A stretch of 64,000 bases of DNA from Kiritimatiellia bacterium (GTDB lineage Bacteria > Verrucomicrobiota > Kiritimatiellia > RFP12 > JAAYLN01), in assembly GCA_045603485.1 (NCBI GenBank), contig JAZUMF010000005.1, positions 40,784-104,783 of the forward strand. Direction: 5' to 3'. Under the pieces are notes generated by a model. The model was given only the letters and a program-made list of their open reading frames with translations, made no database searches and had not been told where the DNA came from. The position numbers were made by a program, and so were the translations under genes. Of this stretch, positions 40,809-62,437 are shown piece by piece; within the stretch, counting starts at the first letter, position 1, and every line of letters begins with the position of its first letter.

Positions 40809-40820
40809 GAGACGGACGCC

Positions 40821-44551: not shown

Positions 44552-45249
44552 CGATGGAGCATATCTTTTGCGGCTACGGCGATAGACCTGTACTCAATGA
44601 TGTCAGCCTTTCCGTTAATGAAGGTGAGGCTGTGCTGATCGCCGGGCCGAATGGCTGCGGAAAGTCTACGCTTTTGAAAGCTGTTTCAGGGGTGCTTAAG
44701 TTGTCTGCTGGCAATATCAAACTATCCGGAGAATCGCTCGCGGGACTTTCGGTCGAGCGGCGTATTCGATCGGGTATCGGTTATTTGCGCCAAAGCGATA
44801 ACATCTTTCCCGGTCAGACGGTCGAGGAGAATCTTGGGCTCGCCGGGATGATGCTTTCAAGAGCGATATATTTGTCCGCGAGAGATGAGATGTTGGAACT
44901 TTTCCCTTTTCTTAAAGCGAAACTTAACGATCGGGCAGGCTCATTATCTGGTGGGCAGCGTCAGGCACTCGCATTAGCGATGGTATTCCTAAGCCCTAAA
45001 AAGCTCTATCTTCTTGATGAGCCGACGGCAGGGCTTTCGCCTGCAGCCGCACAGGATATTATGGGTCGGGTACGTCAATTCGTGAAGGACGATGCGATGC
45101 GCTCGGTTCTTATGGTGGAGCATCGGCTTGATCTTTTGTCGTGGGTCGATCGTGCGGTCTTTCTTTCGCAGGGCAAGGTCAAATCCGAAATCGAGAATAT
45201 CGCGCTTCTTCAGGATGCCGAATGGCTCGCGAAGAATTATTTTGAGTAA
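44542..45249 (+). CDS. livF: Branched-chain amino acid ABC transporter ATPase LivF
   Basis: GPNGCGKST, LSGGQRQ, and LYLLDEP. Confidence 0.85.
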   Translation: MLLTMEHIFCGYGDRPVLNDVSLSVNEGEAVLIAGPNGCGKSTLLKAVSGVLKLSAGNIKLSGESLAGLSVERRIRSGIGYLRQSDNIFPGQTVEENLGLAGMMLSRAIYLSARDEMLELFPFLKAKLNDRAGSLSGGQRQALALAMVFLSPKKLYLLDEPTAGLSPAAAQDIMGRVRQFVKDDAMRSVLMVEHRLDLLSWVDRAVFLSQGKVKSEIENIALLQDAEWLAKNYFE

Positions 45250-45265
45250 AGTGGGAGAAGGCTGT

Positions 45266-46702
45266 ATGACGATGACACGGTTAGATGAATTACTGAGAAA
45301 CGGCGAAGGACTCGCCACAGAGTTCAAGCGGTGCTCGGGTAGAGTTGAGCACGATGTGTTTGAGTCTATCTGCGCATTCCTTAACAGGTTTGGCGGCGAT
45401 GTGTTACTTGGGGTCGAGGATGACGGGACTGTTGTCGGGATAAAAGGCGATCCGGTCGCATTGCGCAATAATATTATGAATATTGCGAATGACGGGAATG
45501 TTTTTGATCCGGTTGCATATATCGCGCCTGAGATTGTCGAGTATGATGGTAAGACGATTATCAGTGTTCATGTTCCTGCAAGCGGCGAGATTCATGCTTA
45601 TAAGGGCGTTGTTTATGATCGCAACGGCGATGCGGATGTGCGTGTGCGCTCGACGGCGGCCAAGGGTATGATGTTGCTGCGCAAACAGGGTGTTTTCACT
45701 GAACAGCGGATATATCCGTATGTTACAAAGGCCGATTTGAATCTTGCCGATCTAAAGCGGCTTCGCATTCGTGCGCAGAATAACAGCCGTGATGAAAGCC
45801 GCCATCCGTGGATGGATATGGATGATGATCAGCTTCTGCGTAGTGCCAAGCTGGTTGGCACAGATCGTGAATCTGGTAAGAGTGGTTTTAACCTTGCGGC
45901 CGTTATGCTGCTTGGAACGGAAGATGTTATAAAAGATATTTGCCCCGCATATGTTACGGATGCCATTTTGCGTGTTAAAGACATTGATCGTTATGACGAT
46001 CGCGATGTGGTCGGTGTTAATTTGATTGCGGCATACGACAGATTGATGGATTTTGCGAGAAAGCATCTTCCGGATCCGTTTTTTCTTGAAGGGGATATCC
46101 GTAAAAGTCTTCGTGAAATTATCGTCCGTGAAATGGTGGCAAATACGCTCATTCATCGCGAATTTACGAGTTCGCGCCCGGCGCGGTTTGTCATTGAACG
46201 CAGCCGAATGTATGTTGAGAATGCATGTCGAGCATCCTGCGGTGATGCATTGACGCCCGAGAATTTTGTCCCCGACCCAAGAAATCCCATAATAGCCAAC
46301 TTCTTCAGGGTGATTGGCTACGCTGACCAACTCGGCTCTGGTGTTAGGAATCTTTTCAAGTACGCCAAGGCATACGGCGGTTCTGATCCTAAGTTGAAGG
46401 ACGGAGACATATTTCGGATTGAGGTGTCGCTTCAGTCTGTAAAGGTGGGGGCGACTATGGAGAAAATGTCTGCTACTAGGGAGAAAACTAGGGAGGAAAC
46501 GACAGCTACTAGGGAGAAAACTAGGGAGAAAATCATTGCCTTCCTTTCAGATCATCCAAGTGCTACACAGGATGTCATAGCGAATTCGGTAGGGTTGTCA
46601 GTGAAAGGTGTGGAGTGGAACATAAAGGCGTTGAAGGATTCAGGACGCATCCGCCGTGTTGGCCCAGACAAAGGTGGACATTGGGAGGTTGTCTCGCAAT
46701 GA
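45266..46702 (+). CDS. AlbA_2 (Schlafen-like divergent AAA) / HATPase_c_4 / winged-helix ATP-binding regulator
   Basis: The N-terminus RLDELLRNGEGLATEFKRC...GGDVLLGVEDDGTVVGI matches the AlbA_2 (AAA_4) fold pattern. A C-terminal wHTH is present. An internal tandem duplication reads ATREKTREETT/ATREKTREK. Confidence 0.55.
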   Translation: MTMTRLDELLRNGEGLATEFKRCSGRVEHDVFESICAFLNRFGGDVLLGVEDDGTVVGIKGDPVALRNNIMNIANDGNVFDPVAYIAPEIVEYDGKTIISVHVPASGEIHAYKGVVYDRNGDADVRVRSTAAKGMMLLRKQGVFTEQRIYPYVTKADLNLADLKRLRIRAQNNSRDESRHPWMDMDDDQLLRSAKLVGTDRESGKSGFNLAAVMLLGTEDVIKDICPAYVTDAILRVKDIDRYDDRDVVGVNLIAAYDRLMDFARKHLPDPFFLEGDIRKSLREIIVREMVANTLIHREFTSSRPARFVIERSRMYVENACRASCGDALTPENFVPDPRNPIIANFFRVIGYADQLGSGVRNLFKYAKAYGGSDPKLKDGDIFRIEVSLQSVKVGATMEKMSATREKTREETTATREKTREKIIAFLSDHPSATQDVIANSVGLSVKGVEWNIKALKDSGRIRRVGPDKGGHWEVVSQ

Positions 46703-46934: not shown

Positions 46935-47333
46935 ATGAAAAATGGCATTAATCGTTCGACTGAGAAATTGCAGCATTATCCGTCGCCATTCTCAAAGCTT
47001 TTGCTCGTTCCGCAGGACAGTACGCTTTCGGTTGAGTCGGATCTTACTGGTGCAGTGGGCGTTTGCAAGAACGCGACTCTGGTCTGTGGCGGCTCTTGTT
47101 TCATTAACGTGGAGATTGGCGAGAAGGCTAAATTTATTTGCCGAGGAGCGTGTCTTGGAAATGTTGTGATTAAAGAGGGAGGCTTCTTTAAGTGTGATGG
47201 AGAAATGAGCGGCGACATCACAAACAACGGCGGTCGGTACGATATTCACGGATCCTTCTCCGGCGAGGTGTACGGTGAATTGGAAGAGGACGAAGAAGAT
47301 GATGATGATTACGACATAGATGAAGACAATTAA
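46935..47333 (+). CDS. Cys-rich beta-helix (bactofilin-like) protein with polyacidic tail
   Basis: Repeating G-x-V/C motifs (VCGGSCFINVEIGEKAKFICRGACLGNVVIKEGG). C-terminal EEDEEDDDDYDIDEDN. Confidence 0.35.
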   Translation: MKNGINRSTEKLQHYPSPFSKLLLVPQDSTLSVESDLTGAVGVCKNATLVCGGSCFINVEIGEKAKFICRGACLGNVVIKEGGFFKCDGEMSGDITNNGGRYDIHGSFSGEVYGELEEDEEDDDDYDIDEDN

Positions 47334-47551: not shown

Positions 47552-48040
47552 ATGGATAAAATGGGTCAGGAACAGATAGTTGACGCAGTGCGCAACTGGC
47601 TTAAAGCTAACGACTGGTATTACGATTACAATGCCGAGAAGCATATGTTCAATATGAGCATCAGCCTCAAGAGCAAATTACAGTCAGGCAGGATATTCGT
47701 AGATGTCAAGGAAGACTGTTACGCGGTGTACATTTACGCGCCAATTAGGGGCAAGGACAATCTCGCCGAACTCACCAAGTACCTGACGATGGCCAACTAC
47801 GGCCTGCTCAACGGGAACTTCGAGCTGGACGTAGACGACGGCGAAATCCGCTACAAGACCTACGTGAATTGCGATGGGTTGCAGGAGCTCTCTTCAGCGG
47901 TTATCGAGGACAGCATTTACGTCGGCTGTGTTATGATGGATCGCTATGGCGACGGCATCGCCGCGCTTGCGCTTGGGTTCTCCGATGCCGACACGGAAAT
48001 CAAGAAGGCAGAAAAAAAGGACGAGTCTTCTGCTTCGTGA
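47552..48040 (+). CDS. YbjN-family protein (T3SS-chaperone-like putative sensory transduction regulator)
   Basis: A 162-aa acidic protein with the YbjN-like pattern: the DWYYDY region, then YAVYIYAP...LNGNFELD. Confidence 0.55.
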   Translation: MDKMGQEQIVDAVRNWLKANDWYYDYNAEKHMFNMSISLKSKLQSGRIFVDVKEDCYAVYIYAPIRGKDNLAELTKYLTMANYGLLNGNFELDVDDGEIRYKTYVNCDGLQELSSAVIEDSIYVGCVMMDRYGDGIAALALGFSDADTEIKKAEKKDESSAS

Positions 48041-48077: not shown

Positions 48078-49199
48078 ATGAAGATTAAGAAGAACCTGTT
48101 ACTGGTCGTTATCCCAACGGTCACTGTTTTGGCATTTGTCATATTTTTTGCATGCCGAAACAGACAACCAGCTTCTGCCGATAATGCTGTCCAAGTTGGT
48201 GTGATTCTGCCTTTGACGGGCTCGCTTGGATATGAAGGAACTCGTATGAAAGATGCGATGGACTTGGCATTGTCCCAATTAGATGGTGAAAAACAACAAT
48301 GTTTAAAACTCAATTACGAAGACGGGAAGTTTTTGGTTCGCGATTCCATATCGGCGTTCAACAAATTAAACGAGAAGGGGATGGATGCATGGGTCATTTT
48401 TGGTGATACGCCGTTGTTAGGCATGAAAACTTTACTTGAGAAGACTGGAAAACCAGTTTTGTGCCTCATTGGAGCTCAGGATCTAGTCAAAGATTCGCAA
48501 ACGTTCTTCCATTTTTCGGGATCTATAACGTTGCCGGCTATTGAGAATGCTAAGTTTGCCAAGCGCAAGGGCGTGAAGACGGTCTCTTTAATTTATTTAA
48601 ATGAACAGATTGGTTTGGAGGTGAAGGGTGCTTTTGAACGGGAGTTTATAGACGAAGCACATAAGGTAGTCGCGTCAGAGGGATTTGACATGGGGCAACG
48701 AGCAATGAAGAGTTTGGTTGCGAAAGCTATTGCGCCTAATCCTGACGCAGTATTTGTTTATGGATATGCGACTCCATATATTGAAATCTTAAACGAAATA
48801 AAAAATGTTGGCTACCGTGGAATTGTTTTGACAGATGGAAATCTTGCCGCTGTAAAACCCGATCTTATCGATGGTGGGGAGGGCGTTTGGTATGCAGATT
48901 TTGATTTTGGCGATGGATGTGAGAACCCAGAGACTAAAAAGTTTCTGCATGACATGCATGACATCTATGGGGAGACTGCGAGTTCCTTTTCCGCATTTGC
49001 CTATGAAACGGTACGTGTGCTGTCGACAATTATCCATGATAAGGGTAAAACCCCTGCCGATATTCATAGCGGATTGTTGGCAATTAAGGACTACCACTCT
49101 ATTTTTGGTGTGATATCGTATCGTGACAATAGGGAACTTGAAATCCCAGTAGTGATTAAAAAGGCAACACGGGATAGCGCACAAGTTGTTAATGATTAA
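48078..49199 (+). CDS. Leu/Ile/Val-binding-protein-like periplasmic binding protein (ABC substrate-binding or sensor PBP)
   Basis: N-terminal TM/signal anchor, then a type-I PBP fold pattern (VQVGVILPLTGSLGYEG...). It lies immediately upstream of the giant gene and is coupled to it. Confidence 0.75.
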   Translation: MKIKKNLLLVVIPTVTVLAFVIFFACRNRQPASADNAVQVGVILPLTGSLGYEGTRMKDAMDLALSQLDGEKQQCLKLNYEDGKFLVRDSISAFNKLNEKGMDAWVIFGDTPLLGMKTLLEKTGKPVLCLIGAQDLVKDSQTFFHFSGSITLPAIENAKFAKRKGVKTVSLIYLNEQIGLEVKGAFEREFIDEAHKVVASEGFDMGQRAMKSLVAKAIAPNPDAVFVYGYATPYIEILNEIKNVGYRGIVLTDGNLAAVKPDLIDGGEGVWYADFDFGDGCENPETKKFLHDMHDIYGETASSFSAFAYETVRVLSTIIHDKGKTPADIHSGLLAIKDYHSIFGVISYRDNRELEIPVVIKKATRDSAQVVND

Positions 49200-49212: not shown

Positions 49213-52200
49213 ATGGATGCAGGACCGGATGCACAGCATGGTGTAAATACAGGCGTTGTGGAATCCAAATACTATGTGGATGTATGGTTGCCGGACGCTA
49301 AAGACTATCCGGGGTTGAGAGGAGCAAGTCCCAAAGTCCAAGAGGCATTGGGTCTAGGCCTTGGACTTCCAGATAAACCTACAGTTGTTCCACTTGGTGA
49401 AATAGAAATTAATCTTAAGCCTCGGTTCTATAAGCGAAACGAAAAGAATCTTGATATTGATAGTGAATCGGTCGCGGCCATTTCGTTTTCGGAAGATTTC
49501 GCGAAGCAGTGTAATTCCAATGATGTGGCCGTTCTTGCAATGATGGGTGGGGTTCTTCCTGCAGGGAAGAATTTCTTTAGAATGGGTTTTTCCGTTGAAA
49601 CTATTGCGGCCATCATTGGAGATCAGATTATTAATGATAATGACGGACGGGTGTCTCATGTTTTTTTGATTCGTGTGGATAATGATCTTGGAAATGAATT
49701 TGAACGAGCATTCTCAAGGGCGGTGAATGCCCCAAACCAAGGGCGTTCTTTGGATATACTCAAGATTGATGAGAACGGTACCCCCATTACTAAGAAGATA
49801 CAAATTACGCCGACGGACGAACAGGTGGCACGGAATACCTCAACGAATGAGGGTGTTATTAGTAAATGGTTGACTAGTTGTATTAAAAATCCGGAACACC
49901 CAAGAAATCAAGGCCTGAGATCTGTTGTCATATATGGATATTGGGAGCAATATTGGAATTTCGTAATAGAAGTATTAAGATGCAAAGCCTTTTGTAACGA
50001 CGAAGATTGGTTATATGTTGAGTCAAATTACCCGCTACATTATCCCTTTATTCTTTATGAAGCACGACATGTAGATGATTTAGATCAAGATGATTTGCAA
50101 AATTTTACTAAAGAACGCACTGATGATATTATTCCGAGATCGGTGGAAATTACGAGTTCGGGAAAAAATAATAAAAGGATAATGGGAGATAAAAAACAAG
50201 AGAAAACAGGAGGTGAAAGTCCAGAGAAACCGCCGGAGAGTGTGTTTCACCCTCAGAAGGGGAATTTGCAAAACAACAATGAAGACGAAAGGGATTTCAA
50301 TATATTTAATGAAAAGAAAATGGCTCATGCGAGTACGATAGCTCATGCGATCAAGAATAGGGATGAACCTGAAGAAGAGCATCAAAAAGAATCTAAGGAA
50401 CTCAGTCAAGAAAAGCTTATGCCGAGGGAACTTAAGCGAATTCGTTGTATAACGGGTAGACTCGTTAATGATGGTGAAAGTAGTTTCATTACATTTGCGA
50501 AGGAAACGGTTCGCCTGCTTCGTGCTGCTATTAGGGACGCTCATGAAAAAAAGGGAAAAGCGCAAGATCGGACCATCAAATCTATACGAGAATGCATATG
50601 CAAGTTTTTGGCAAATAGTAAGTTCTATGCAGCGGAACATCTAGGGTCTTTCTTTTTTCGAAAAGATGGTGAATTGTTTTTCCCTCTCTACCTCTATAAC
50701 GGAAAGCTTGAGCGACAAAGAATCGTCAGAGAGTCTTGTTGTAAGGGTGATGAATTCACAAAGGAGGCTATAGCCGATCAATTACTACAACTATCTAATT
50801 CTCTGAACAAGATAACGCGGGCTGAAATCCCCCGCAACCTTAAGGTAGGCAATTCGGATGGTGCTAAGAAGGTATTTGAGGAATTCAGTAAAATAATTGC
50901 TGACATCTCAAAGGGAATTGAGATTAAGTTTGTAAGCTATTATCCTAATACAGAGCACCTGTTCTATACATGGACAGATACGCAGGAGGGAAATGTTGAT
51001 AAGACGGAGCGATTTATCAATGTTAGCATTTTTGATGATGTTTGTAAAAAAATACAAGGTGTAATCCAGATTAACTTAAAAGATTTTGATTTGGAAGATA
51101 ACGATGCATATAGAGTATATTTGGTCTACGAGAGGACTGAAAAAGTTTTTGATGCATTAACTCTGGCGGAGTGGTGGAATACACAAAGCAATGATTGCCA
51201 GGCGACGATTATAGCTGGGAATAAAGGTTGGGAGAGATGTCTATTGCCTGTTAAGGCGGTTGTGTTTGCCAAATCAAGGATTGGGAAACAAGACGGTCAG
51301 ACGGATGAGGGTATGTCTGAAAACGAGTATAAAGATATTATAGACAATGCCAATTATGCACACTACTACCGCGACTGCGACGGCCATGAAAGCAAGTTCA
51401 AGTTTGATGAGATTTTAAGTGGTCTTTGTAAACTTCTTGGGTGTAGTGGAGACAACGGCAATTCAGAATCAGATGCCCGTTTTTTATATTATATTCCTGA
51501 ATATATTCCGGAAGACAACAAACCTGAAGGCAATAATAGTTACAAGATAGGTGGGCAAGGCGGAATCGTTATGGCGACTTGTTGCAAGTTGTCTTTGTTT
51601 GATTTGCAAATTGTTGAGAATATGGTCTCCCACATTTTTTCTAAGCTAAAAACATGTTTGGCAGAACATGATGTCCTCCTTTCAAATATAAAATCTGCCA
51701 TTGGCTCCATAATGTCTCGCAATGGTTCTCATAACATTGGTAGCCATGTATTGGCGGCACTGTCGCACAATGTGGGAACATTGCCGGATGATAGGGTGTT
51801 ATATCAGTATATTCAGCAGCGGATGGATTATATTGCAACGGTGACGACGGACTTTCCGACATGGACGCAACCGACAATGTTTGTAGCCGATATGATGAAA
51901 ACTTTTTTATCGCAGAGGCATTTATTAGATCATATTGTGGAGAGCGAAGGGTTGCATGCATTTCAGTTTCAAAATCCTAATATGACGGATGAGGAGTGGG
52001 CGGCTCAAGAAAACTGTGTAAAGATTTATGTTAGGAAGTTAGATGGTGATGGAAGTGTAAAGGACTTCATTGAATATGAAAAGGGTAAACGAGAACTTCC
52101 CATTGATTTGACTAATGATGTTGATTTAGCAATTCCCGGGGGAATAATTGGTGAACATGCGTTCTATACGATTCTTGAAAATATAATTCGGAATGCCGCG

Positions 52201-54687
52201 AAACATTCTTGGGCGAAGATTAAACAATGGCAAATAAGGCAAAACGAAATTGAGTTGCAGTATAATAATTTGGAGCTTTTCATTGATTTTGAAGAAAAGG
52301 ATGATGAGGTTAAGTATAACGTTTATGCAAAGTTGCCGATGGCTCAGGTAGTTGTGGAAAAATCTAAAGCTGACAATAAATTATGTCAGAAGGTGATTGC
52401 TTCAGAACAACTGATTAAATGGAAGGAAAAGTTTGATGATATGGGTGTAGTGAAAGCAAAGGAGGAAAATGCTTTTAAGGAGCTGCCAGATTATGAACAG
52501 GAACAGGTCAAACTACATTTGGCTAATCTCAAAGACGATCCACTTAAAAAATGGGTAGATAGATATGACAAACAAGGCGGATTGACATCTGATGAGCAGA
52601 AGGAGTTTGATTCATTGGCGATTCATCATAAGCAACAAGTTATGTTGGCGAGGCCTTTTATTGATTCGCAGGGAGCACTTCGTCGTGAGAATTGGGGTAT
52701 GGCAGAAATGAAGATATCGGCAGGATATCTCGCTGGCGAATCTATTGAGGCGATAGGGGGTATTGGAGACAAAAAAGGAAGTAATGAAATTATAACGCCA
52801 CGCATCAAATCAGAAAAGGTCAAGAGGAAATGTATAGAATCAGGGGAAAAAGTAACAGAAATTGAGGTCGAAGAACTATATTTAGGCTATGAATTTTCTA
52901 TTGCCAAACCCAAGGAAATATTGATTATAGTTGCGGAGGAGCTGAATAGGGAAGGAAAAGACGATGAATGGGGTAGTGAAAATATTCGTAATGAATTAAA
53001 AAAGCATGGGATTTTTGTTAAGACAGTTAGCGAGATAAAACAGGAGAACCGTCTTAATTACAGGTATGTAGTTCATTATAATGCACGTGAGTTGTTTGAT
53101 AAAAATTATCATGTTAAAGATGATGTTTTATTGCCGTTTAGAGTGTTAAGTGTGGCGGATATTGAGGATGAAAGGCTTAAAGATTTTATTCCGACAATAG
53201 ATATAAGTAAACTAAAAGAGTGTTTCGAGAAGGGCACTGAAGATCCGAAAAACGGAATTCAAAAACTTGTCTACGATACTTATCTTAAACATTTTTTGTC
53301 ACAACGGAGTGTAGATAATATTGGTCTTTTGGTTGCGATAAATGAAAATGAGAAATCTGGCGGAAATAGTTTGATTTCGGATGCGGATATTCTTGAATTG
53401 ATGCTTGAGCAGAATTTTGCTGTGTGCGTAGCTCAATACAAGGAATTTGCAGCTAACGAAGATAAGATTATTAAGTGTTTAGAATCGATTCGTCATAAAA
53501 GTAGTGCTAAAGATACAGTAATAAAGTTTAAGCACTTCTCAAATAAGACGATAAGGGAATTGATTGCACAACGTATGTGCGATTGGGCTGGAAAGTCTAA
53601 TGATTCATGGATTCCAATAGTTGAACATTTGCGTAAAAAGTATTTCGTATCAGATGCTGAGAGCGAAACTTCCAATGAGCTTAAGCCAAGTAATAATGAA
53701 ATATCAGTTGATTTTGCAGCAAGTGTAAATTCTCTGTCGCAAAAACATCCGATTGATGATTTTATCCGTTATGTGGAATCGATTTTTGAAAATACAAAGA
53801 AACTGTTTAAACAGTATGAAGAGCAGATTGTGACGTTGCCGGCAGGGTATAAGGTTCAATCTTCTGATGTTGGAGAAGGGGCGTCGCTTATAGACGGGAT
53901 TAAGATTATTACATCAGCAGAGAAAGAAGAACTTGAAAAAGAAAAAGATCGCCACTGGATTGGGTATCGCCGTCATGCTCATACGCTACCTGTTGATGAT
54001 TCCAAGAGACTTTATGTTGAGCCGTTAAGCGGAACTCAGACATACTTGTCACAATTGGCGAGAGTAAAAACCGATCTTGGATTGCAAATGCGTCTTATAG
54101 AAAATGGCCTTATGCGTATTCTTGTTCTTGATGAACGAGTTGCGAAGTTCCTTCGTGAGCATCAAAAGGAAGTTGGCCCGCATTATAAGTCGATGAATAT
54201 CCATGTCATTGATCACGAATGGGTTGTTGCTGGTGGAGAAACTCCTCCTGAGGGTTTTTACGGAAAGTTTACTTCTGTGCACAAAGAAGCGTTGAAATCA
54301 TTTGTAAAACCGAAAGATTCTAATGATGGTGAGAATAACCAAAATGGGAATGCCGATGTGAGCTCGAATTCGAACCTTACTATGTTTGATGATGTTGACA
54401 TCTTAATCGTTCATCAGGGGATTCTGGATAAATGGTACCCTGAATTCAAAAATCGTAAGGATATGTGGAAGTTATTGGAAGGGTTCAAGAAATTAGTGAA
54501 ATATGTTGTCGTGACTACTGGTCGAGGGACTCCGGAGAACATACCTGAAGAGACTCATCTGTTGCCGTTCGCCGTCGTTGAATCTACACTCTTTAAGAAA
54601 TATCCAGAGAAGTTGATCTTAACAGATACTATCATGAATGTCCTTCCTGTTGGGAAGAAGAACGACAACTCTGGAGGCCAAAAATGA
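49213..54687 (+). CDS. Giant (1824 aa) cytoplasmic protein with a histidine-kinase-type GHKL ATPase N-box and a degenerate receiver-like C-terminus; AT-rich
   Basis: ATG 49213 lies 10 nt after AAGGAGG, which overlaps the PBP stop. N-box-like LENIIRNAAKHS at about 52176-52210. An upstream H-rich motif SRNGSHNIGSHVLAALSH at about 51712-51765. C-terminus RILVLDERV...DILIVHQGILD...YVVVTTGRG. No Walker A and no TM helices found. The nucleotide composition is visibly AT-rich compared with the flanks. Confidence 0.6.
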   Translation: MDAGPDAQHGVNTGVVESKYYVDVWLPDAKDYPGLRGASPKVQEALGLGLGLPDKPTVVPLGEIEINLKPRFYKRNEKNLDIDSESVAAISFSEDFAKQCNSNDVAVLAMMGGVLPAGKNFFRMGFSVETIAAIIGDQIINDNDGRVSHVFLIRVDNDLGNEFERAFSRAVNAPNQGRSLDILKIDENGTPITKKIQITPTDEQVARNTSTNEGVISKWLTSCIKNPEHPRNQGLRSVVIYGYWEQYWNFVIEVLRCKAFCNDEDWLYVESNYPLHYPFILYEARHVDDLDQDDLQNFTKERTDDIIPRSVEITSSGKNNKRIMGDKKQEKTGGESPEKPPESVFHPQKGNLQNNNEDERDFNIFNEKKMAHASTIAHAIKNRDEPEEEHQKESKELSQEKLMPRELKRIRCITGRLVNDGESSFITFAKETVRLLRAAIRDAHEKKGKAQDRTIKSIRECICKFLANSKFYAAEHLGSFFFRKDGELFFPLYLYNGKLERQRIVRESCCKGDEFTKEAIADQLLQLSNSLNKITRAEIPRNLKVGNSDGAKKVFEEFSKIIADISKGIEIKFVSYYPNTEHLFYTWTDTQEGNVDKTERFINVSIFDDVCKKIQGVIQINLKDFDLEDNDAYRVYLVYERTEKVFDALTLAEWWNTQSNDCQATIIAGNKGWERCLLPVKAVVFAKSRIGKQDGQTDEGMSENEYKDIIDNANYAHYYRDCDGHESKFKFDEILSGLCKLLGCSGDNGNSESDARFLYYIPEYIPEDNKPEGNNSYKIGGQGGIVMATCCKLSLFDLQIVENMVSHIFSKLKTCLAEHDVLLSNIKSAIGSIMSRNGSHNIGSHVLAALSHNVGTLPDDRVLYQYIQQRMDYIATVTTDFPTWTQPTMFVADMMKTFLSQRHLLDHIVESEGLHAFQFQNPNMTDEEWAAQENCVKIYVRKLDGDGSVKDFIEYEKGKRELPIDLTNDVDLAIPGGIIGEHAFYTILENIIRNAAKHSWAKIKQWQIRQNEIELQYNNLELFIDFEEKDDEVKYNVYAKLPMAQVVVEKSKADNKLCQKVIASEQLIKWKEKFDDMGVVKAKEENAFKELPDYEQEQVKLHLANLKDDPLKKWVDRYDKQGGLTSDEQKEFDSLAIHHKQQVMLARPFIDSQGALRRENWGMAEMKISAGYLAGESIEAIGGIGDKKGSNEIITPRIKSEKVKRKCIESGEKVTEIEVEELYLGYEFSIAKPKEILIIVAEELNREGKDDEWGSENIRNELKKHGIFVKTVSEIKQENRLNYRYVVHYNARELFDKNYHVKDDVLLPFRVLSVADIEDERLKDFIPTIDISKLKECFEKGTEDPKNGIQKLVYDTYLKHFLSQRSVDNIGLLVAINENEKSGGNSLISDADILELMLEQNFAVCVAQYKEFAANEDKIIKCLESIRHKSSAKDTVIKFKHFSNKTIRELIAQRMCDWAGKSNDSWIPIVEHLRKKYFVSDAESETSNELKPSNNEISVDFAASVNSLSQKHPIDDFIRYVESIFENTKKLFKQYEEQIVTLPAGYKVQSSDVGEGASLIDGIKIITSAEKEELEKEKDRHWIGYRRHAHTLPVDDSKRLYVEPLSGTQTYLSQLARVKTDLGLQMRLIENGLMRILVLDERVAKFLREHQKEVGPHYKSMNIHVIDHEWVVAGGETPPEGFYGKFTSVHKEALKSFVKPKDSNDGENNQNGNADVSSNSNLTMFDDVDILIVHQGILDKWYPEFKNRKDMWKLLEGFKKLVKYVVVTTGRGTPENIPEETHLLPFAVVESTLFKKYPEKLILTDTIMNVLPVGKKNDNSGGQK

Positions 54688-55280
54688 AATATTATGTCTT
54701 TATCGCAAGAGACGAGGAAGAGTTTTCGCGCTATCCTCAAAGTGGGTTTCAGGAGCTGAAGAGGGATTTTGCAAAAACGATTCGCCATAAGGAGATGGGA
54801 GACTCATATTTATTGATTATATCAAGCGATGTGAAGCCTAAGAATGCAGAATCGGATGAAGATGTTAAGATGATGTGTTTTAAGGTTGCAGCTGCGATAA
54901 AGTTAGTAAATACAAATTACGATTATGCAGCAGGTAATGATTGTGTGCATATTTTTGTTCATGTGGGTGGAGAAGGTAGTTGTGGCTTAGGGAAAATGGA
55001 GGAAAGTCTAAAAAAGAAGGTTGGAGAAATAAAGGAAAATTGGAAAGTTTTTCTTTTAAGTTCAAGCTGGCGCTGGAGAATTGATGTCAAGCAGTCTATG
55101 ATTAGATTGCCTAATAGAGAAGGGGAACTTGATGTTCTTGTAAAGCGGTGCGAGATGGACATTGCCGCTGAGATTTTAAAAGGATTTAAGGCTCGTTATA
55201 GTACTACTGAGAAAAAAGATTGCTATGATAAAATCTGTGAAAAGCTTTCCATTGTTAAGATTGAGGAGAAGAGAAAATGA
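54684..55280 (+). CDS. Small hypothetical protein (198 aa), possibly a degenerate receiver/flavodoxin-like fold
   Basis: ATGA overlap with the upstream and downstream genes. Alternating beta-alpha pattern: YYVFIARDEE, YLLIISSD, VHIFVHVGG. No recognisable catalytic motif. Confidence 0.45.
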   Translation: MKYYVFIARDEEEFSRYPQSGFQELKRDFAKTIRHKEMGDSYLLIISSDVKPKNAESDEDVKMMCFKVAAAIKLVNTNYDYAAGNDCVHIFVHVGGEGSCGLGKMEESLKKKVGEIKENWKVFLLSSSWRWRIDVKQSMIRLPNREGELDVLVKRCEMDIAAEILKGFKARYSTTEKKDCYDKICEKLSIVKIEEKRK

Positions 55281-58200
55281 GCAATGGCAGAAAATTAAAT
55301 CTTTTTATTTTTGACTTGGCACAGCATGGAGAACTGACAAACCTAGTACTGTGGCAAGTAGCTAAGATGTTTGAGATGAGGTGTGGTATCTGTGTTGCTT
55401 CTTATTCATGGTGTGCGCCTTTAAAGAAAGAGAAATTTATTCCTCTATTTCTTTGCAATTCGTATGATGAGATTAGGGCGCATGGTTTTAATGTGCCAAG
55501 AGAATTTGTCTTTGAGGTTGGATTGAATCCTAATCCTAATTATATTGATGATCCAGATAATCAACCAGAGATGTTGTGTGAGATCTTAGGGGATAAGATA
55601 GAAGATCGGTTAAGTCTGTATAAGGAGTTAGAAATAGGTGTAAGTTTTGAGGATGTTAAAGACTGGTGTGTCGGTGCGTTTCGTAGATATTTGTTTATGG
55701 ATGATGATGTTCACGGAACATCGGGGACTTTTTCTATTTCGGAATTAATGAAATGCAACAAAGAAACAGGCTTGAATGTTGATGATAAATATTGGCAAAA
55801 ATGGTTTGGGGAATTCGGTGATGACAAAAATAAATTTAACAGAGAGATGTTGCGGGCTAGATTCGGAGTTGGCGTGAAAAATTCAAGTGACAGTACAACG
55901 CAAAATCCAAAGGAAGATGATCCGCTCAGAAATTATAAGGATGTATTGTCGGTTGTGTTTGAGGAAGAATTTAGGTGCATAAAAGCAGACGTTATTGAGA
56001 ATCCGGGCGAAAGCTATCAAAGAGTAAAAGATTTTTTTGAGAAGAAGTTTCCAAGTCAGCAAGGTCTTGCATTAAAATTTATTTCTCCATGCGGAAAGAT
56101 ACGTGTACTTGTTGTAGATGATAATGCTACAGCCGAAGTTGAAAGTCTTAAAAGTAAAGAATCGTTGTCTAATATTTTTGATTTTGCTCCGTTGGATTTG
56201 AAGAAGCGAGATGATGAATCTTCGAATCAGTTTATAAAAAGATCCATAGGCGAGATAAAAAATAAATCTAAGGAATGTGTTGATGTAATTTTATTAGATC
56301 TAAGCTTAGGCGAGGCGACAGGTTCTGATTTGACTGGCTATCATCTGATTAAGAGATTTAAGCAATGGATGCCGACGGCCTATATCATTATTTATTCTGA
56401 ACATGAGGATATGGGGCATATTGTTCGTGCGTTCAGAGAGGGTGCCGATTGGTTTTTGAAAAAGAGCGAAGCTCAAGAAAAACTTGCGCGTCATTTTATT
56501 TCGTTGATGGCGAATCGCAAATGGAGAAAAGAATTCGGCGTCATCAGACCGAAATATGTTCTTGATATAAAAGGCAAGGATGAAAATTTTATCGCCAAAT
56601 TCAATGTAAAAGAGGTATGGCAATATTTGACAATAAAAAGTCTGGAATTATTGCCGGGACATTATATCAAGATAAATAAGATGGGGGGCGGTATCAGTTC
56701 GGCTGTCACATTCCGAGCGCAGAAAGGCATTACAAGAGATACTGAAGATAATCAGGCGCCCGTAATCATCAAGATAGATTCTGTTTTTAATACGAGGATG
56801 GAATATGAGCGTTATTTCCGCTTCATTCGACCGTATATTGCCAATGAGTCGGGGCGGATAGAGAAGCGTGAAATAGTTCTCAATAGGGATAGCGCCGCGA
56901 TTGTTTATACATTTACAGGGCGGCGAGATGCTGCACATGAACTTAACACCTTGGACGAACTGCTGCGCCGCGATATGTTATCGCGTGAAACTTGCGATTA
57001 TGAAAAATATCGCAAGATGTTTAATGCGCTGTTTGATGAGATCACAGCGCGTCTGCACAGGGTGACTCCAGTCGCAGAATTCAGGGATTTAAAGACAGAT
57101 CCGGAAGAGTTGTCGGAGTTTTCTGATTATCCCAATCGCACATTTGGAGAATTGGAGAGTGATTCTATATCATCCTCCGATCAAGGTCATAAATCTTGGT
57201 TTTTCTCGAATTTTACATATAGAATGCCGATAGAGAGTGTTGCTGAAAAGTTTATAATAAGTGAAGGCTCAAGCAATCCGAATGAGGTATATGAAGTTTA
57301 TGGTATCCAGAAGGATGACTTAGGTAAGAATTCCGCTAAATACCCTTATACTTATGTTATTGAATGTCAGCGATATAAGATTAAAACTGAAAATGATAAT
57401 AAAGAGTTGCATCAAAAGGTGTTGCTGAAAGGCGATTTAGCGTCATATTACGCCCGTTTTAGGACACATCTTTGGCCGGGAATGTTGCTGTCGATAAAAC
57501 TGGGGGAAGGTCAAACATTAAATGAGAACGAACTTATGTCTTGGTGCTTTTGTTTCTGCGCCAATAAGAATTTATATCAAATCCGCGCTGAAAAGACAGA
57601 AGATGGCTCTAAACAAGAGGGATGTTTCCGGATATCTAAAAAGCTTTATAATAAGATGGCCGGATGGTTTAAGGATAAAGAAAACCGATACTTAATAACA
57701 GTTCGTGACGCGCTGAAAAAACTTGTCGATGAGGAGCCGCACAGATTTGTGTGTCCGGTTGGTATTGTGCACGGCGATTTAAATCTTAAGAACATTATGA
57801 TTGAATCCCGGGTCAATCCACCGAAAGAAATTCAAGCAGACATAACGAAGGTTTTGTCTGATGTGTGGCTTATAGACTTTGCTCGGACGCGGCGAGATGT
57901 CGTAGCACATGATTTCAATGTCGCTTTTACATCAGTACTTCCGTTGCTCTTTCAGCCGGATCTCGTTGGGACGCATGAGAAGGGTAAACCGTTTGAGCAG
58001 AATGATGAGCAGAAGAAATACGTCGAAGAATTAGATGAAAAACTTGAACCGTATTTGCGCCATGTTCTCTTTGACAAGTATGATACTTTGTCGGATTTGT
58101 TTGCGGAAGATCAGCGACTTGTTTTCATGTACAAGATATTAAGAAGAATCCGTAAAGCGGCACTTGCGACGGGGATGTCGGAGGATATGTATCTACTGAC

Positions 58201-58354
58201 GACAGCACTGACATGTTTGTATTCGTTTAAACTGTATTTAAAACAAGGAATGCCGGAAGCCGCAACAGCACTTGTAATGGCGGGATTGCTTTGCGTGGAG
58301 AAGTTGAATCCGCCAGATGACTGTTTCGAAGCATCTAATCAGAAAACATTATGA
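55277..58354 (+). CDS. Receiver (REC) domain fused to a eukaryotic-like Ser/Thr protein-kinase-like domain (1025 aa)
   Basis: REC: VLVVDDN (56101-56127), VILLDLSL, IIIYSEHED, DWFLKKS. Kinase: G-loop KMGGGISSAV, beta3 VIIKI, catalytic loop HGDLNLKNIMI (57769-57803), and DFG-like LIDFARTR. Confidence 0.7.
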   Translation: MSNGRKLNLFIFDLAQHGELTNLVLWQVAKMFEMRCGICVASYSWCAPLKKEKFIPLFLCNSYDEIRAHGFNVPREFVFEVGLNPNPNYIDDPDNQPEMLCEILGDKIEDRLSLYKELEIGVSFEDVKDWCVGAFRRYLFMDDDVHGTSGTFSISELMKCNKETGLNVDDKYWQKWFGEFGDDKNKFNREMLRARFGVGVKNSSDSTTQNPKEDDPLRNYKDVLSVVFEEEFRCIKADVIENPGESYQRVKDFFEKKFPSQQGLALKFISPCGKIRVLVVDDNATAEVESLKSKESLSNIFDFAPLDLKKRDDESSNQFIKRSIGEIKNKSKECVDVILLDLSLGEATGSDLTGYHLIKRFKQWMPTAYIIIYSEHEDMGHIVRAFREGADWFLKKSEAQEKLARHFISLMANRKWRKEFGVIRPKYVLDIKGKDENFIAKFNVKEVWQYLTIKSLELLPGHYIKINKMGGGISSAVTFRAQKGITRDTEDNQAPVIIKIDSVFNTRMEYERYFRFIRPYIANESGRIEKREIVLNRDSAAIVYTFTGRRDAAHELNTLDELLRRDMLSRETCDYEKYRKMFNALFDEITARLHRVTPVAEFRDLKTDPEELSEFSDYPNRTFGELESDSISSSDQGHKSWFFSNFTYRMPIESVAEKFIISEGSSNPNEVYEVYGIQKDDLGKNSAKYPYTYVIECQRYKIKTENDNKELHQKVLLKGDLASYYARFRTHLWPGMLLSIKLGEGQTLNENELMSWCFCFCANKNLYQIRAEKTEDGSKQEGCFRISKKLYNKMAGWFKDKENRYLITVRDALKKLVDEEPHRFVCPVGIVHGDLNLKNIMIESRVNPPKEIQADITKVLSDVWLIDFARTRRDVVAHDFNVAFTSVLPLLFQPDLVGTHEKGKPFEQNDEQKKYVEELDEKLEPYLRHVLFDKYDTLSDLFAEDQRLVFMYKILRRIRKAALATGMSEDMYLLTTALTCLYSFKLYLKQGMPEAATALVMAGLLCVEKLNPPDDCFEASNQKTL

Positions 58355-59031
58355 CACCTAAACGCATAATCCTTGTTCGCCACGGTGAATCGGAGGCGAA
58401 TGTCGATCCGACGGTGTATGCCCGCGTGCCGGATTGGCGGATTGCACTTACAGCAACTGGTGTTGAGCAGGCTCGGGATGCTGGGCGGAAGATTGCGGGA
58501 TTGATTGGCGGCGAGTCGTTCGGGGTGTTCAGCTCGCCGTATGTGCGAACGGAACAGACCAAGGACGCGATGCTGGAGGGAATGGGGCGCGAGCCGGTGT
58601 TTGACTACCAAGATCCAACTTTGCGCGAACAGGAATACGGCAACATGCCGCCGACAGATGAGAACAATGCGAACCGTGAGTTCCGCAAGAAGTTCGGCTA
58701 CTTTTTCTACCGTTTCCCGAACGGTGAATCGTGCGCCGATGTCTCGGATCGTATCACGCTCTTCCTTGACTCCCTCTATCGCCGGTTTGAGCGCGACACG
58801 TGTCCCGAGAACATCATCATCGTTTCCCACGGCACGGCTATCAAGTGCTTCCTTGCTAGATGGTATCATTGGTCGATTGCAAAGTTTGATACCATTCCCC
58901 AGTTGCCAAACTGCCATGTTAGTGTGATGAGACGAATTGATGGGGATGTGCAACGCGCTTCTTCGCAGTTTGAATTGCATGAACCATTTGAAACAGTATG
59001 CTGTTTCTCAATGAAAGGTAAAGAACAATGA
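58351..59031 (+). CDS. Histidine phosphatase superfamily (PGM/SixA branch) protein
   Basis: N-terminal RIILVRHGESEANV (RHG catalytic motif) and a downstream SHG. ATGA overlap with the kinase gene. GC-rich, like the host. Confidence 0.75.
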   Translation: MTPKRIILVRHGESEANVDPTVYARVPDWRIALTATGVEQARDAGRKIAGLIGGESFGVFSSPYVRTEQTKDAMLEGMGREPVFDYQDPTLREQEYGNMPPTDENNANREFRKKFGYFFYRFPNGESCADVSDRITLFLDSLYRRFERDTCPENIIIVSHGTAIKCFLARWYHWSIAKFDTIPQLPNCHVSVMRRIDGDVQRASSQFELHEPFETVCCFSMKGKEQ

Positions 59032-60935
59032 CAATTGTTCAAGATCAGTTTGACGCATCGTCCTTCCAAGTTCCGCCGAAAGTCGGGAAGTCTGGAATGT
59101 TGGGCGACCTGTCGGGTGCCCTGCAGGTGTTAAACCGTGTTGCGTTTAGCATTGGATGGATACTGTTGGCCATAGCGGCTCCGCTTGCATGGGGCTTCTT
59201 GCCGTTTGGTTATGAGAAACTTAAGGAGAGCGCCGAAATCAGCGCGGTGCCATCGCTGACAGTGTGTATGCGAATGACTTTCGCTGCTTTATTCTCGCTT
59301 GCTGTGCTTGCCGTCTGGGTGGCTATAGGCAAGGCTGTGTATCGTGGGTGTGACGGAGACGTGCCTTGGTTTAAGAAGATGTTACGAGAAACGCGGGAAG
59401 CCTTAAAGCGTCATTGGCGGCCACTCCTTGCGTTGCCGGTTCTTTATGTTGTCGCGCGCATATTGGAAATGGAATTGTTGTTGAACGCATCGCGGATTGG
59501 GGTGGAAGGACCATTCGGCGGCGCATTGGAGCAATACGGATATTTTCTGGGATTGCTTTTGATAATACTTTTGCCTACGGCCAGATTGCGTAATTTTTCC
59601 ATCGTGGATATGCTTGTGTGGACAGTTACTGTGGTTATGGTTTTCGCTAGCGCAGTTCTGAATCTGACTGCTCGCGTCCATGTTGCCCACTGGAATTCTG
59701 TTTACATAATGACCGTCATGGCGTTTGCCGTGGCTGTGATAGGGCTTTTCTCTGCACTTGTAAAGACGGCAAGTGGCTTTGCGGCGGAGTTCTCGGAAGA
59801 TGTCAGCAAACATCGTTTTGCTCCAGCCATATTTGCCAGCATGGTCGTGAACATGGTAATGGCTGCAGGGGCGGCTGTGTTGTCTATTCTGTATCTGATT
59901 GTCTATTTTGCTGCAAAGGGCTGGAAGTGGATGTCGTATGGCGATAAGATCAAATATTCGATGAGCGATGCATTGCCCGCATATTTCTCAGATGGAAAAT
60001 GGTTCTGGTTTTTGATTGTAATTGTTGTTGTGGGATCGTTGGTTGCGCCGATTTGCCAGTTGGCGGGTGTAGCGCTACACGATGCGGCAATAAGGAATCG
60101 CAAATTATCGAAATATGGCATATCTGGCAGGGACTGGCTGATAGTGTGTGGCGGATTTGAGCCTATGTTTGTGGTCCTGATCGGCATTTGTTCTGGTGCA
60201 ACATTCATAAGCAATTTCTCGATAGCGCTCTCGTTTGGCCTTGTGCTTGCGATTGGCTTGCTCAGGGTCGTGAAGGTGTGGAGTGCGAAGAATACAGTCC
60301 TCAGGAATGGTATCTTTACCCATATTCGTGGCAGTTCAAGAGGCCCTGATTCGACCATGTCTGAGGATGATTTGCTTCTGCGCGCGGAAAAACTAGCTCT
60401 CCTGAAATTCTATGACAAGCGCCGCGAATTTAGGGGAACAAGGTTGGGTGTGTGGCCCAAACCCGCTTTGCTGCGTGATCTTATCGACAGGCATGATGCG
60501 GTTAAGGATTTCTTATCTGCTGCTACAACGCAGGAAGTTCTATGTGGGAGAGAGCCTTTTTATACGCCGCTTATAGGCGGTGAAGTCTTCTTCACGCAGG
60601 ACGATCCTTTCACTCATGATGTTCTCTCTGCCCAATTCGCTTGGCTCAAACGGCGGCATCCGGATGTTGATGTGACGTCCTTCAGCTATTTGCTAAAGCG
60701 TTTTTGCAGTGAATCCGCTGGATGGAATGGCAAGTTGGGGTTGAAGAGCCTGGCTTGTGCTGGCGAACCGAATGCAACGCCATATATAATCATCCCGAGA
60801 AACCTGAAGGCGGCGACGGGCTTTTGTAGTGACTGGAACAAACTCCTTGCAGTCCTTCATGGAATCGTTGACAGAGAGGAAATACCTCAATATGTCAACG
60901 CCTTGATGTTGGATGCAAAGAACATTGATGACTGA
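59028..60935 (+). CDS. Polytopic membrane protein (about 8 TM) with a 300-aa C-terminal cytoplasmic domain of unknown function
   Basis: Hydrophobic helices throughout the first 330 aa. ATGA overlap with the phosphatase gene. Confidence 0.5.
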   Translation: MTIVQDQFDASSFQVPPKVGKSGMLGDLSGALQVLNRVAFSIGWILLAIAAPLAWGFLPFGYEKLKESAEISAVPSLTVCMRMTFAALFSLAVLAVWVAIGKAVYRGCDGDVPWFKKMLRETREALKRHWRPLLALPVLYVVARILEMELLLNASRIGVEGPFGGALEQYGYFLGLLLIILLPTARLRNFSIVDMLVWTVTVVMVFASAVLNLTARVHVAHWNSVYIMTVMAFAVAVIGLFSALVKTASGFAAEFSEDVSKHRFAPAIFASMVVNMVMAAGAAVLSILYLIVYFAAKGWKWMSYGDKIKYSMSDALPAYFSDGKWFWFLIVIVVVGSLVAPICQLAGVALHDAAIRNRKLSKYGISGRDWLIVCGGFEPMFVVLIGICSGATFISNFSIALSFGLVLAIGLLRVVKVWSAKNTVLRNGIFTHIRGSSRGPDSTMSEDDLLLRAEKLALLKFYDKRREFRGTRLGVWPKPALLRDLIDRHDAVKDFLSAATTQEVLCGREPFYTPLIGGEVFFTQDDPFTHDVLSAQFAWLKRRHPDVDVTSFSYLLKRFCSESAGWNGKLGLKSLACAGEPNATPYIIIPRNLKAATGFCSDWNKLLAVLHGIVDREEIPQYVNALMLDAKNIDD

Positions 60936-60954
60936 CGGCGCAAGGAGTGTTATC

Positions 60955-62436: not shown

Positions 62437-62437
62437 G

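Follow-up and report, generated by a model that had tools for sequence, protein, structure and literature searches.

The giant protein encoded in the window (the whole 64,000-nucleotide stretch of Kiritimatiellia DNA analysed here) belongs to a family that, judged by sequence comparison, is large and unannotated, and its most likely function is that of an atypical phosphotransfer hub. Guided by a predicted structure, we assign a probability of roughly 55% to the reading in which this hub is a soluble modular signalling protein whose diverged class-I histidine-kinase core would relay phosphoryl groups to an effector.

A giant soluble protein with many relatives

The product is encoded by a lone ORF with two alternative starts, TTG 49186 and ATG 49213; the latter is the likely start, because AAGGAGG lies 7 nt 5' of the ATG and homologues share an N-terminal MDxGxD (Table 1). 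The single giant ORF and every motif quoted in the original prediction were recovered in place: the H-rich element SRNGSHNIGSHVLAALSH spans residues 835–852, LENIIRNAAKHS follows ~150 residues C-terminal to it at residues 988–999, WGMAEMKISAGYLAG spans residues 1161–1175, and RILVLDER and YVVVTTGRG start at residues 1635 and 1764. These motifs are not due to chance, since ten of their residues (H840, H845, E989, N990, R993, N994, K997, W1161, G1162, and E1165) are shared by all 156 homologues compared (100% conservation). As first described, the protein has no transmembrane segment (best 19-residue Kyte-Doolittle window 1.43, threshold 1.6) and no Walker A pattern [AG]xxxxGK[ST] anywhere along its length.

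Word-indexed searches with the full protein or with a 7-member alignment gave just 7 relatives and made the giant look like an orphan. Exhaustive HMMER searching overturned this orphan status: the core and C-terminal domain define a very large family, which counts 2,107 representatives at E≤1e-3, 317 of them at E≤1e-30, and whose hub proteins are soluble and 1,100–1,900 residues long. Pfam, NCBIfam, PADLOC, and PDB sequence searches returned no match to any part of the giant, and literature searches found no described equivalent of the family or locus. One homologue matched the PADLOC model 'mad2', which is the MADS methyltransferase; we attribute the match to the N-terminal methyltransferase domain of that homologue and not to the core.

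The N-terminal region (residues 1–780) is presumed to be a sensor or docking module. In the exhaustive search, residues 1–400 were recovered in the closest relatives only and residues ~440–780 in a few more. The identity pattern of the region is mosaic, and a variable low-complexity linker occupies residues ~290–410.

Table 1. Coordinates of the hub, its parts, and neighbouring genes in the window
Feature	Position	Strand	Basis or remark
Liv/HAAT-type ABC importer genes, 2 permeases + 2 ATPases	42005–45249	+	Pfam
Permeases, BPD_transp_2	42005–42889 and about 42886–43755	+	Pfam E 7e-21 and 1.5e-40
ATPases, ABC_tran	43736–44551 and 44542–45249	+	Pfam E 2e-32 and 7e-34
Exported periplasmic binding protein, Peripla_BP_6	48078–49199	+	Pfam E 6e-26
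Giant soluble protein, 1,824 aa	49213–54687	+	ORF calling
N-terminal region, aa 1–780, lineage-specific, no assignable domain	49213–51552	+	No family matches
DHp-like helical hairpin, aa 801–878 (helix 801–852, loop, helix 858–878)	51613–51846	+	AF2 model
H-box variant S839-H840-N-I-G-S-H845	51727–51747	+	Invariant in 156 homologues; helix 1 position
Swappable cassette (giant 3' half with CA, linker, and C-terminal domain; small gene; effector gene)	51983–58350	+	
CA domain, predicted Bergerat fold, aa 935–1245	52015–52947	+	AF2 model
N-box, aa 985–999, YTILENIIRNAAKHS	52165–52209	+	E989, N990, R993, N994, K997 invariant
Degenerate G1 position VYAKLP, aa 1037–1042	52321–52338	+	Family consensus IWDNxS
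Lid insertion, ~105 aa, aa 1043–1147	52339–52653	+	Some relatives lack it, others vary here; modelled with low confidence
G2-like element, aa 1159–1173, ENWGMAEMKISAGYL	52687–52731	+	W1161, G1162, E1165 invariant
Conserved C-terminal domain, aa 1583–1824	53959–54684	+	Alignments A4 and A6
Small partner protein, 198 aa	54684–55280	+	Overlaps each neighbouring gene by 4 nt
Effector, REC-TCAD9, 1,025 aa	55277–58354	+	Pfam TCAD9 E 3e-20, Response_reg E 8e-9
Effector receiver domain, aa 274–412	56096–56512	+	REC HMM E 3e-34
Effector TCAD9 kinase-like domain, aa 469–881	56681–57919	+	K499, HGD834, N839, D867 kept
Histidine-phosphatase superfamily protein, His_Phos_1	58351–59031	+	Pfam E 3e-30
Polytopic membrane protein, 635 aa	59028–60935	+	Variable (33% identity); replaced in L088

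A predicted, strongly diverged histidine-kinase core

The centre of the giant (residues ~800–1245) is predicted to form a strongly diverged class-I histidine-kinase core. In the AF2 model of this region (pLDDT 79.5; a model made with only the 7-sequence alignment reached pLDDT 50 and was set aside), a DHp helical hairpin precedes a Bergerat alpha/beta ATP-binding fold, as in class-I sensor kinases such as KdpD, WalK/YycG, HK853, and EnvZ, and the N-box segment falls within the Bergerat-fold CA domain, in keeping with the original assignment. The H-rich element, put forward earlier as a possible phospho-acceptor region, falls within the modelled hairpin's first long helix, a position that fits such a site and makes H840 a candidate phospho-acceptor. 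H840 follows a Ser, as the HisKA His does, and is modelled 12 residues short of the helix 1 end (local pLDDT 54–67); the S-H dipeptide would stand at the distance from the hairpin usual in class-I kinases. The earlier statement that there is no canonical H-box is right in that the motif is noncanonical but wrong if read as absence, as the variant S-H-N-I-G-S-H replaces the HisKA S-H-E-L-R-T-P, within a block of ~90 residues that is almost invariant family-wide.

Within the CA domain, the N-box Asn residues associated with Mg-ATP, N990 and N994, do not vary and are matched by hhalign with N343 and N347 of EnvZ, with which the hub shares an identical ExxxxNAxK[HY] pattern; the N-box is the sole segment that aligned to EnvZ-type kinases. 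The G1 and G2 boxes are noncanonical. At the G1 position, A1039 stands where the adenine-binding Asp is expected; family-wide this residue is D in 42%, T in 30%, and A in 8%, and the Asp always occurs in a DNxSD context, never as DxGxG. Comparing locus by locus, we found the G1 Asp missing from most TCAD9-type and Fer4-type cassettes and the DN retained in NtrC-linked alleles. In place of a GxGxGL G2 box stands an invariant N-W-G-x-A-E-M, and the G2-like element is modelled as a helix in the position that the post-G2 helix would take. Of the divergent histidine-kinase ATP lid proposed originally, the kinase fold stands in the AF2 model, but ATP binding by the window allele is not to be assumed, given A1039 in place of the G1 Asp.

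Because no sequence model recognises HisKA or HATPase_c, the case for histidine-kinase homology rests on predicted structure. Pfam and NCBIfam matched neither domain in the window protein or 6 close relatives, HATPase_c matched 1 of 30 homologues (E 0.004), hhalign gave a probability of 1.6% for the core against EnvZ-type kinases, and the PDB, queried by sequence or profile using the protein and alignments A3, A4, A6, and A8, returned noise only (haemoglobin, designed helical proteins, CHIPS, HtpG). Like class-I kinases, the hub has a receiver-domain partner encoded nearby; unlike them, it is undetectable by Pfam, NCBIfam, and hhalign, lacks the G1 DxGxG and G2 GxGxG, carries a large lid insert, has a further conserved domain at its C-terminus and a small partner that is obligatory, and in many loci has no receiver at all. 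If the core is an active kinase, a large histidine-kinase family would have been missed by Pfam-A, NCBIfam, and PADLOC, and two-component censuses of gut, rumen, and sediment bacteria would undercount kinases.

C-terminal domain, small partner, and effector

The C-terminal domain contains the motifs YxRH, EPLSGxQ, ILxxDER, IxHQGIxDK, TTGRGxPxNIP, LPF, and YPEK, which are included in the architecture common to the family; in loci L083 and L085, hub core and C-terminal domain are split into two adjacent genes. Its earlier description as a pseudo-receiver found no backing in sequence or profile comparisons: there was no Pfam Response_reg match, the REC HMM gave E>1, a PDB profile search was empty, and hhalign of alignment A6 against receiver domains (A7) gave a probability of 1.4% over 17 columns, covering the first strand only. 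The beta-strand-like motifs ILVLDER, LIVHQG, VVVTTGRG, and LLPF hint at most at a flavodoxin-like (beta-alpha)5 fold.

The ORF directly 3' of the giant gene was recovered in ~20 loci by jackhmmer with the small partner (alignment A8). Its product, marked by the motifs YVFIARDEEEF, IFVH93VGG, and LLSSS, is fused to the effector in L001/L097; it is not a receiver and matched no known domain in Pfam, PADLOC, or a PDB profile search. An hhalign pairing of its IFVHWGG...SS with LIIHQG...TSGRG of the hub C-terminal domain had a probability of 0.8% and is no evidence of relatedness. Both the C-terminal domain (HQG/TTGRG) and the small partner (HWGG) move together with the effector, and they probably link the hub to it.

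The receiver of the 1,025-residue effector is intact, retaining the acidic pair D281/D282, D341, S374, and K395. Among the 26 loci for which 5 kb or more of downstream sequence was available, 15 had receiver-bearing partners (REC-TCAD9, REC-adenosine deaminase, NtrC-type regulators, or single receivers); since ~40% have no receiver, receiver phosphorylation cannot be the universal output. The His_Phos_1 protein occurs in 8 loci, some of them distant and carrying a REC-adenosine deaminase effector, and in the window it belongs to a one-strand run of overlapping or abutting genes that extends from the hub through 62436.

Cassette exchange within the hub gene

The segment from hub residue ~920 through the end of the effector gene behaves as a cassette exchanged between near-identical genomes. 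Between L088 and the window, the flanks are 95–97% identical, identity is 91% up to nt 51983, and the sequences are unalignable from there until 58351. The left breakpoint (51970–51992) recurs in nine further relatives, the His_Phos_1 protein (78–88% identical in relatives) forms the conserved right border, and hub C-terminal halves occur with unrelated N-termini. The hub plus cassette has a GC content of 0.39, the His_Phos_1 gene one of 0.53, and the membrane-protein gene one of 0.49. At a recombination junction inside the kinase gene, between DHp and CA, the catalytic domain, partner, and effector are exchanged together, which is an unusual diversification route for a signalling protein and recalls how effectors vary in conflict systems. 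Among the effectors are a receiver-kinase, a receiver-adenosine deaminase accompanied by an ITPase, and an Fe-S protein accompanied by Maf and a fused RNA-polymerase-like protein, a repertoire that points to nucleotide pools or transcription as what is controlled.

It is tempting, if doubtful as a whole, to assign the locus to a class of modular signalling or conflict systems not described before, for which four features would have to hold jointly: a hub of the HK fold whose DHp 'junction' is almost invariant; variable N-terminal sensors freely recombining at that junction with cassettes of CA, C-terminal domain, partner, and effector; a hardwired connection with a Liv-type ABC importer; and a relay running partly, besides receivers, via two new His-bearing domains (HQG/TTGRG and HWGG). 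PTS-like His-to-His transfer would then be possible.

Linkage to a Liv-type importer

Gene order in the family is fixed, with a Liv/HAAT-type importer and binding protein followed by hub, small partner, and variable effectors. A same-strand binding-protein homologue lies upstream of the hub in 40 of 48 loci, and ABC permease or ATPase genes lie 5' of family members in 18–28 of 48. The window's binding protein has an N-terminal hydrophobic anchor, and its gene stops 13 nt 5' of the giant gene. The hub may be physically coupled to the importer; across the family, the linkage suggests transporter-linked sensing on a scale so far undescribed.

This near-universal linkage also speaks for an ordinary nutrient-sensing two-component system, in which the hub would act as a cytoplasmic co-sensor of the importer and regulate uptake or metabolism, much as BceS serves BceAB and PhoR serves Pst. 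NtrC/sigma-54 regulators and single receivers at several loci, conserved chromosomal synteny, the lack of any PADLOC match, and the lack of family copies in a scan of viral contigs all fit such a role. However, near-conspecific genomes carry unrelated cassettes, the GC of hub and cassette is low, and the effectors are of kinds typical for conflict systems, namely a TCAD9 kinase, a REC-adenosine deaminase alongside Ham1, and an Fe-S protein alongside BtpA, Maf, and a fused RNAP-like protein. We regard ordinary nutrient sensing as a minority reading that deserves serious weight, and slightly favour a role in conflict or stress responses.

Activity and identity of the core

The loss of the G1 Asp raises the alternative that the window's HK-fold core no longer binds ATP and is instead a non-catalytic platform, phosphotransferase, or phosphatase that assembles partner and effector, with any phosphorylation supplied by the TCAD9 kinase, whose sequence has the look of an active enzyme. 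Almost all REC-TCAD9-linked alleles lack the Asp that NtrC-linked alleles keep, G2 is degenerate, and 105 residues are inserted in the lid. Counting against the phosphotransfer reading, the DHp block is far more conserved than in ordinary kinases though partners vary. Nevertheless, the Mg-ATP residues N990, N994, and K997 and the W-G-x-A-E motif are invariant even in alleles lacking the Asp, a degree of conservation unusual among dead GHKL domains, and the neighbouring receiver retains its Asp; we consider a pseudokinase or scaffold rather unlikely. It is improbable that the core is an HK-fold Ser/Thr or small-molecule kinase acting on another protein rather than on its own His (compare PDK/BCKDK and anti-sigma-factor kinases), as kinases with DHp hairpins rank higher structurally and align across both domains, and receiver partners are frequent. 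An ATPase of the MORC/Hsp90/MutL/GyrB type, which shares only the generic GHKL N-box, is highly improbable: none appeared among the top 50–60 structural matches or in sequence searches, so that the MORC or Hsp90 identity named at the outset as grounds for rejecting the kinase assignment did not materialise.

Proposed mechanism and relation to known systems

In the phosphotransfer reading that we prefer, the lineage-specific N-terminal ~780 residues would take up a signal, which could plausibly be the state of the neighbouring importer, and the core would phosphorylate H840. The phosphoryl group would then move to D341 in the effector's receiver, turning on its APH/protein-kinase-like TCAD9 domain, and the His_Phos_1 phosphatase may reset the system.

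Detocs comprises a kinase (DtcA), a receiver 'buffer' (DtcB), and a receiver-effector (DtcC). The window operon similarly combines a large putative sensor kinase, a small middle protein, and a receiver fused to a variable effector directed at nucleotides or other targets. The window operon differs in that its putative kinase is not a canonical HisKA/HATPase_c protein and its middle protein is no receiver; linkage to an ABC importer and cassette swapping within the kinase gene are not known as Detocs features. PADLOC gave no Detocs match at the locus, using a 2023 library that may not include Detocs models.

BceS of BceS-BceAB (8g3a), which is among the top structural matches of the core model, resembles the hub as a kinase without its own extracytoplasmic sensor that is genetically tied to an ABC transporter; BceS, however, is a small membrane kinase paired with an exporter-type transporter, whereas the hub is a giant soluble protein paired with a Liv-type importer and binding protein. 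The TCAD9 domain was named in work on vWA-MoxR-VMAP 'ternary' conflict systems (Kaur et al., 2020; PMC7159879). No vWA, MoxR, or VMAP genes were found in the window operon, which shares with those systems a TCAD9 kinase-like domain in the effector and the theme of variable effectors but differs in its regulator, an HK-fold hub with a receiver domain.

The hub family and its shared core

The 1,824-residue hub is encoded by a single plus-strand ORF that begins at 49186 (TTG) or 49213 (ATG); the ATG is probably the start codon, judging from the AAGGAGG 7 nt upstream and the initial MDxGxD shared by relatives. No part of the hub was matched when its sequence was searched against Pfam, NCBIfam, PADLOC and PDB. 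All motifs quoted in the original prediction were located (residues 835–852, 988–999, 1161–1175, 1635 and 1764), and the hub does lack a Walker A motif and TM segments, as had been claimed (best 19-residue hydropathy, 1.43).

A word-indexed search gave only 7 relatives (39–80% identical, with a common gene order), whereas an exhaustive HMMER search with residues 1–1200 as the query matched 2,107 cluster representatives at E ≤ 1e-3, of which 317 reached E ≤ 1e-30. The word-indexed search returned matches only near the query's own length and missed >2,000 relatives; orphan status resting on such a search alone is unreliable. Nearly all HMMER matches were confined to residues ~780–1200, at 40–60% identity, in proteins of 1,100–1,900 residues. 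Alignment of 30 family members revealed two common parts: the core (SAIGSIMSRNGSHNIGSHVLAALSHNVGTMPDDRVLYQYIQHRMDYIA..., ENIIRNAAKH, ENWGxAEMxISAGYL) and a C-terminal domain (KYEERIxTLP, YxRH, EPLSGTQSYL, RILIIDER, IIHQGIIDK, YVVITTGRGxPxNIP, RVLPF, YPEK), which are separate adjacent genes in 2 loci. The N-termini vary by lineage, with a methyltransferase domain in 2 of the 30, and no Pfam, NCBIfam or PADLOC model spans the family.

The C-terminal domain had been likened to a receiver with a histidine (H1734) replacing the aspartate. This is understandable, and its motifs appear to be placed as β-strand ends would be in a flavodoxin-like fold. Profile comparison does not support the assignment: hhalign of 34 family C-termini against 14 receivers from the same loci gave a probability of 1.4% over the first strand only, a receiver HMM gave no match, and a PDB profile search was empty.

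Predicted fold and motifs of the core

AlphaFold2 gave a pLDDT of 50 with 7 sequences and, for residues 800–1245 with 35 sequences, a pLDDT of 79.5 and pTM of 0.79. The latter model shows the fold class of the core: a predicted long helix 1 (801–852), a loop, helix 2 (858–878) and small extra elements, and an α/β domain in which the N-box would form a long helix (978–1009), with two strands after it, a poorly modelled insert (~1053–1098), a helical WGMAEM element and two long terminal strands.

Across 156 aligned homologues, S839, H840 and H845 (H-box), E989, N990, R993, N994 and K997 (N-box), and W1161, G1162 and E1165 (G2-like) are 100% conserved. In the model, H840 is preceded by Ser and would lie 12 residues ahead of the end of helix 1, a placement that we presume, from EnvZ/HK853 geometry rather than by superposition, to match that of the HisKA phospho-acceptor; S-H-N-I-G-S-H-V and the HisKA S-H-E-L-R-T-P-L also look alike position by position. 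Against an EnvZ-based kinase profile, hhalign aligned the N-box alone (N990/N994 with N343/N347) at an overall probability of 1.6%, so that homology is visible only structurally.

At the G1 position, 42% of the homologues have D, 30% T and 8% A; the window allele has Ala (VYAKLP, compared to the consensus IWDNxS). DN is kept in loci with NtrC partners, and the Asp is mostly lost in REC-TCAD9- and Fe-S/RNAP-linked alleles. At G2 the family has NWGxAEM instead, and a lid insert of ~105 residues in the window allele is absent from several close relatives. Against a simple kinase reading weigh the loss of the G1 Asp in the window allele, the extreme conservation of the DHp block despite varying partners, and the lack of receivers in ~40% of loci.

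Gene neighbourhood

Our comparison took in 48 loci, of which 41 came from metagenomes and 6 from protein look-ups, the remaining one being the window; L131–L133, contexts of close relatives, are 3 extra, looked at afterwards. The family has a fixed gene context. In 40 of the 48, the hub gene has a same-strand Peripla_BP_6 binding-protein gene upstream, most of the others being truncated contigs. Ahead of the binding-protein gene come two genes for Liv-type permeases and two for ABC ATPases, all confirmed in the window. Further window genes separate the ABC ATPase and binding-protein genes (table). L099 and L105 carry homologues of the Schlafen-type protein in a comparable location; its place is taken by a 1,002-residue Tubulin_2-like gene in L132 and an AAA_14/DUF4143 gene in L086.

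A small ORF always lies directly 3′ of the hub gene. With the 198-residue window protein, which has no known domain, jackhmmer found ~20 of the downstream small ORFs; it also showed that in L001/L097 the ORF is fused to the effector. From the hub gene to 62436, consecutive genes abut or overlap on one strand.

The window hub has a receiver-effector partner. Among the 26 loci whose downstream sequence extends for 5 kb or more, 15 have receivers. Beyond the small ORF, gene content differs between loci; effector sets comprise a REC plus TCAD9 kinase-like protein (the window and 8 other loci); REC plus adenosine deaminase, then a Ham1-like ITPase and His_Phos_1 (L114, L087, L118, L119); NtrC-type regulators and single receivers (10 loci); an uncharacterised ~730-residue protein, cluster 5 (9 loci); and an Fe-S protein, BtpA, Maf and a fused RNAP β/β′-like protein (L098, L099, L108, L131). 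The window receiver retains D281, D282, D341, S374 and K395, and the TCAD9 domain K499, H832-G-D834, N839 and D867; both thus look functional from these residues.

The deaminase set of L114 and L087 couples a deaminase with an enzyme clearing the nucleotides that it would make. In L087, the permease, binding-protein, hub and deaminase genes are split into many short ORFs, probably reflecting a frameshift-rich long-read assembly and not pseudogenisation. The RNAP-like protein (~1,825 residues; Pfam Rpb2_3/6/7 and Rpb1_2/5), found in one cassette type after the Fe-S protein, BtpA and Maf, is far shorter than housekeeping rpoB plus rpoC.

Positions of features in the window and in related loci
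Feature	Position	Strand	Remark
Importer genes	42005-45249		permeases, ATPases
Schlafen AlbA_2 + HATPase_c_4 + winged-helix protein	45092-46702
132-aa protein	46935-47333		Asp/Glu tail; weak bactofilin-like match
YbjN-like protein	47552-48040		~80% conserved among close relatives
Binding protein	48078-49199		Peripla_BP_6
Hub	49213-54687	+
Small partner	54684-55280	+
REC-TCAD9 effector	55277-58354	+	1,025 aa
His_Phos_1	58351-59031	+
Polytopic membrane protein (635 aa) and 507-aa protein	59028-62436		33% and 60% identity
Large ORF	21120-24356	-	1,078 aa
Large ORF	36919-39375	-	818 aa
tRNA-Lys(TTT), tRNA-Pro(TGG) stretch	39650-41214
DUF2924 protein	40380-40808
ParB-HTH ORF (weak)	40855-41214
Deaminase set	L114:11267-14872 and genes after it		1,201-aa receiver + adenosine deaminase
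Deaminase set	L087:13373-17616
RNAP-like protein	L131:14837-18548
RNAP-like protein	L099:16420-21897
RNAP-like protein	L108:14482-18439

Exchange of the CA-to-effector segment

The segment from the CA domain to the effector behaves as a cassette. Between the window and L001/L002, flanking genes are 77–93% identical, compared to 39–43% for the hub and 31–32% for the effector, and the small ORF is hardly alignable. Window DNA matches L088 at 95–97% in the flanks and 91% up to nt 51983, is unalignable to 58351, and is 84% identical over His_Phos_1; similarity breaks at 51970–51992 in 9 further relatives. Hub identity among relatives is a mosaic: P0002 matches the window hub at 96–99% over residues 1–500 and P0004 at 98–99% over 501–600 and 701–800, and every relative drops to 10–50% beyond residue ~900. 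The P0002 contig has the 5′ half in common with the window and the Fe-S/BtpA/Maf/RNAP-like set in place of REC-TCAD9/His_Phos_1. Similar C-terminal halves are joined to unrelated N-termini in window/P0008 (81%), P0007/P0101 (97%), P0003/P0144 (76%), P0005/P0147 (75%) and P0002/L108 hub (47%, with a common effector set). The breaks and these pairings indicate that N-terminal modules and CA-to-effector cassettes are reassorted at a junction marked by the ultra-conserved DHp block. In comparisons of distant lineages, DHp-block DNA is ~71–83% identical and the protein nearly invariant, so conservation is at the protein level. GC content is 0.38–0.40 in the hub, small and effector genes compared to 0.53 in His_Phos_1.

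The RNAP-like cassette occupies the REC-TCAD9/His_Phos_1 place in a genome whose hub-gene 5′ half is ~90% identical in DNA to that of the window (96–99% over hub residues 1–500). Downstream of His_Phos_1, the membrane protein and 507-residue protein are unusually divergent compared to the flanking genes, and for 58929–62557 the near-conspecific L088 offers no nucleotide-level match.

Proposed mechanism and role

We propose that the hub, sensing by way of the importer, would autophosphorylate at H840 and pass the phosphoryl group to D341, which would activate the TCAD9 kinase; His_Phos_1 may reset the system. A conflict or stress role is favoured by the variability of the effector repertoire and by cassette turnover between strains; universal importer linkage, NtrC partners and absence from PADLOC and viral contigs (a scan of which found no family members, PADLOC likewise giving no match) point to nutrient signalling. 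The fold and kinase-receiver logic are known; our literature and library search found no account of this family, of its H-box and lid or extra domains, of its importer linkage or of the intragenic cassette junction.

Elsewhere in the window, the two large minus-strand ORFs have no Pfam match. The tRNA/DUF2924 stretch has a higher GC content (0.54) and appears to be a relic of an integrated mobile element, or the border of one.
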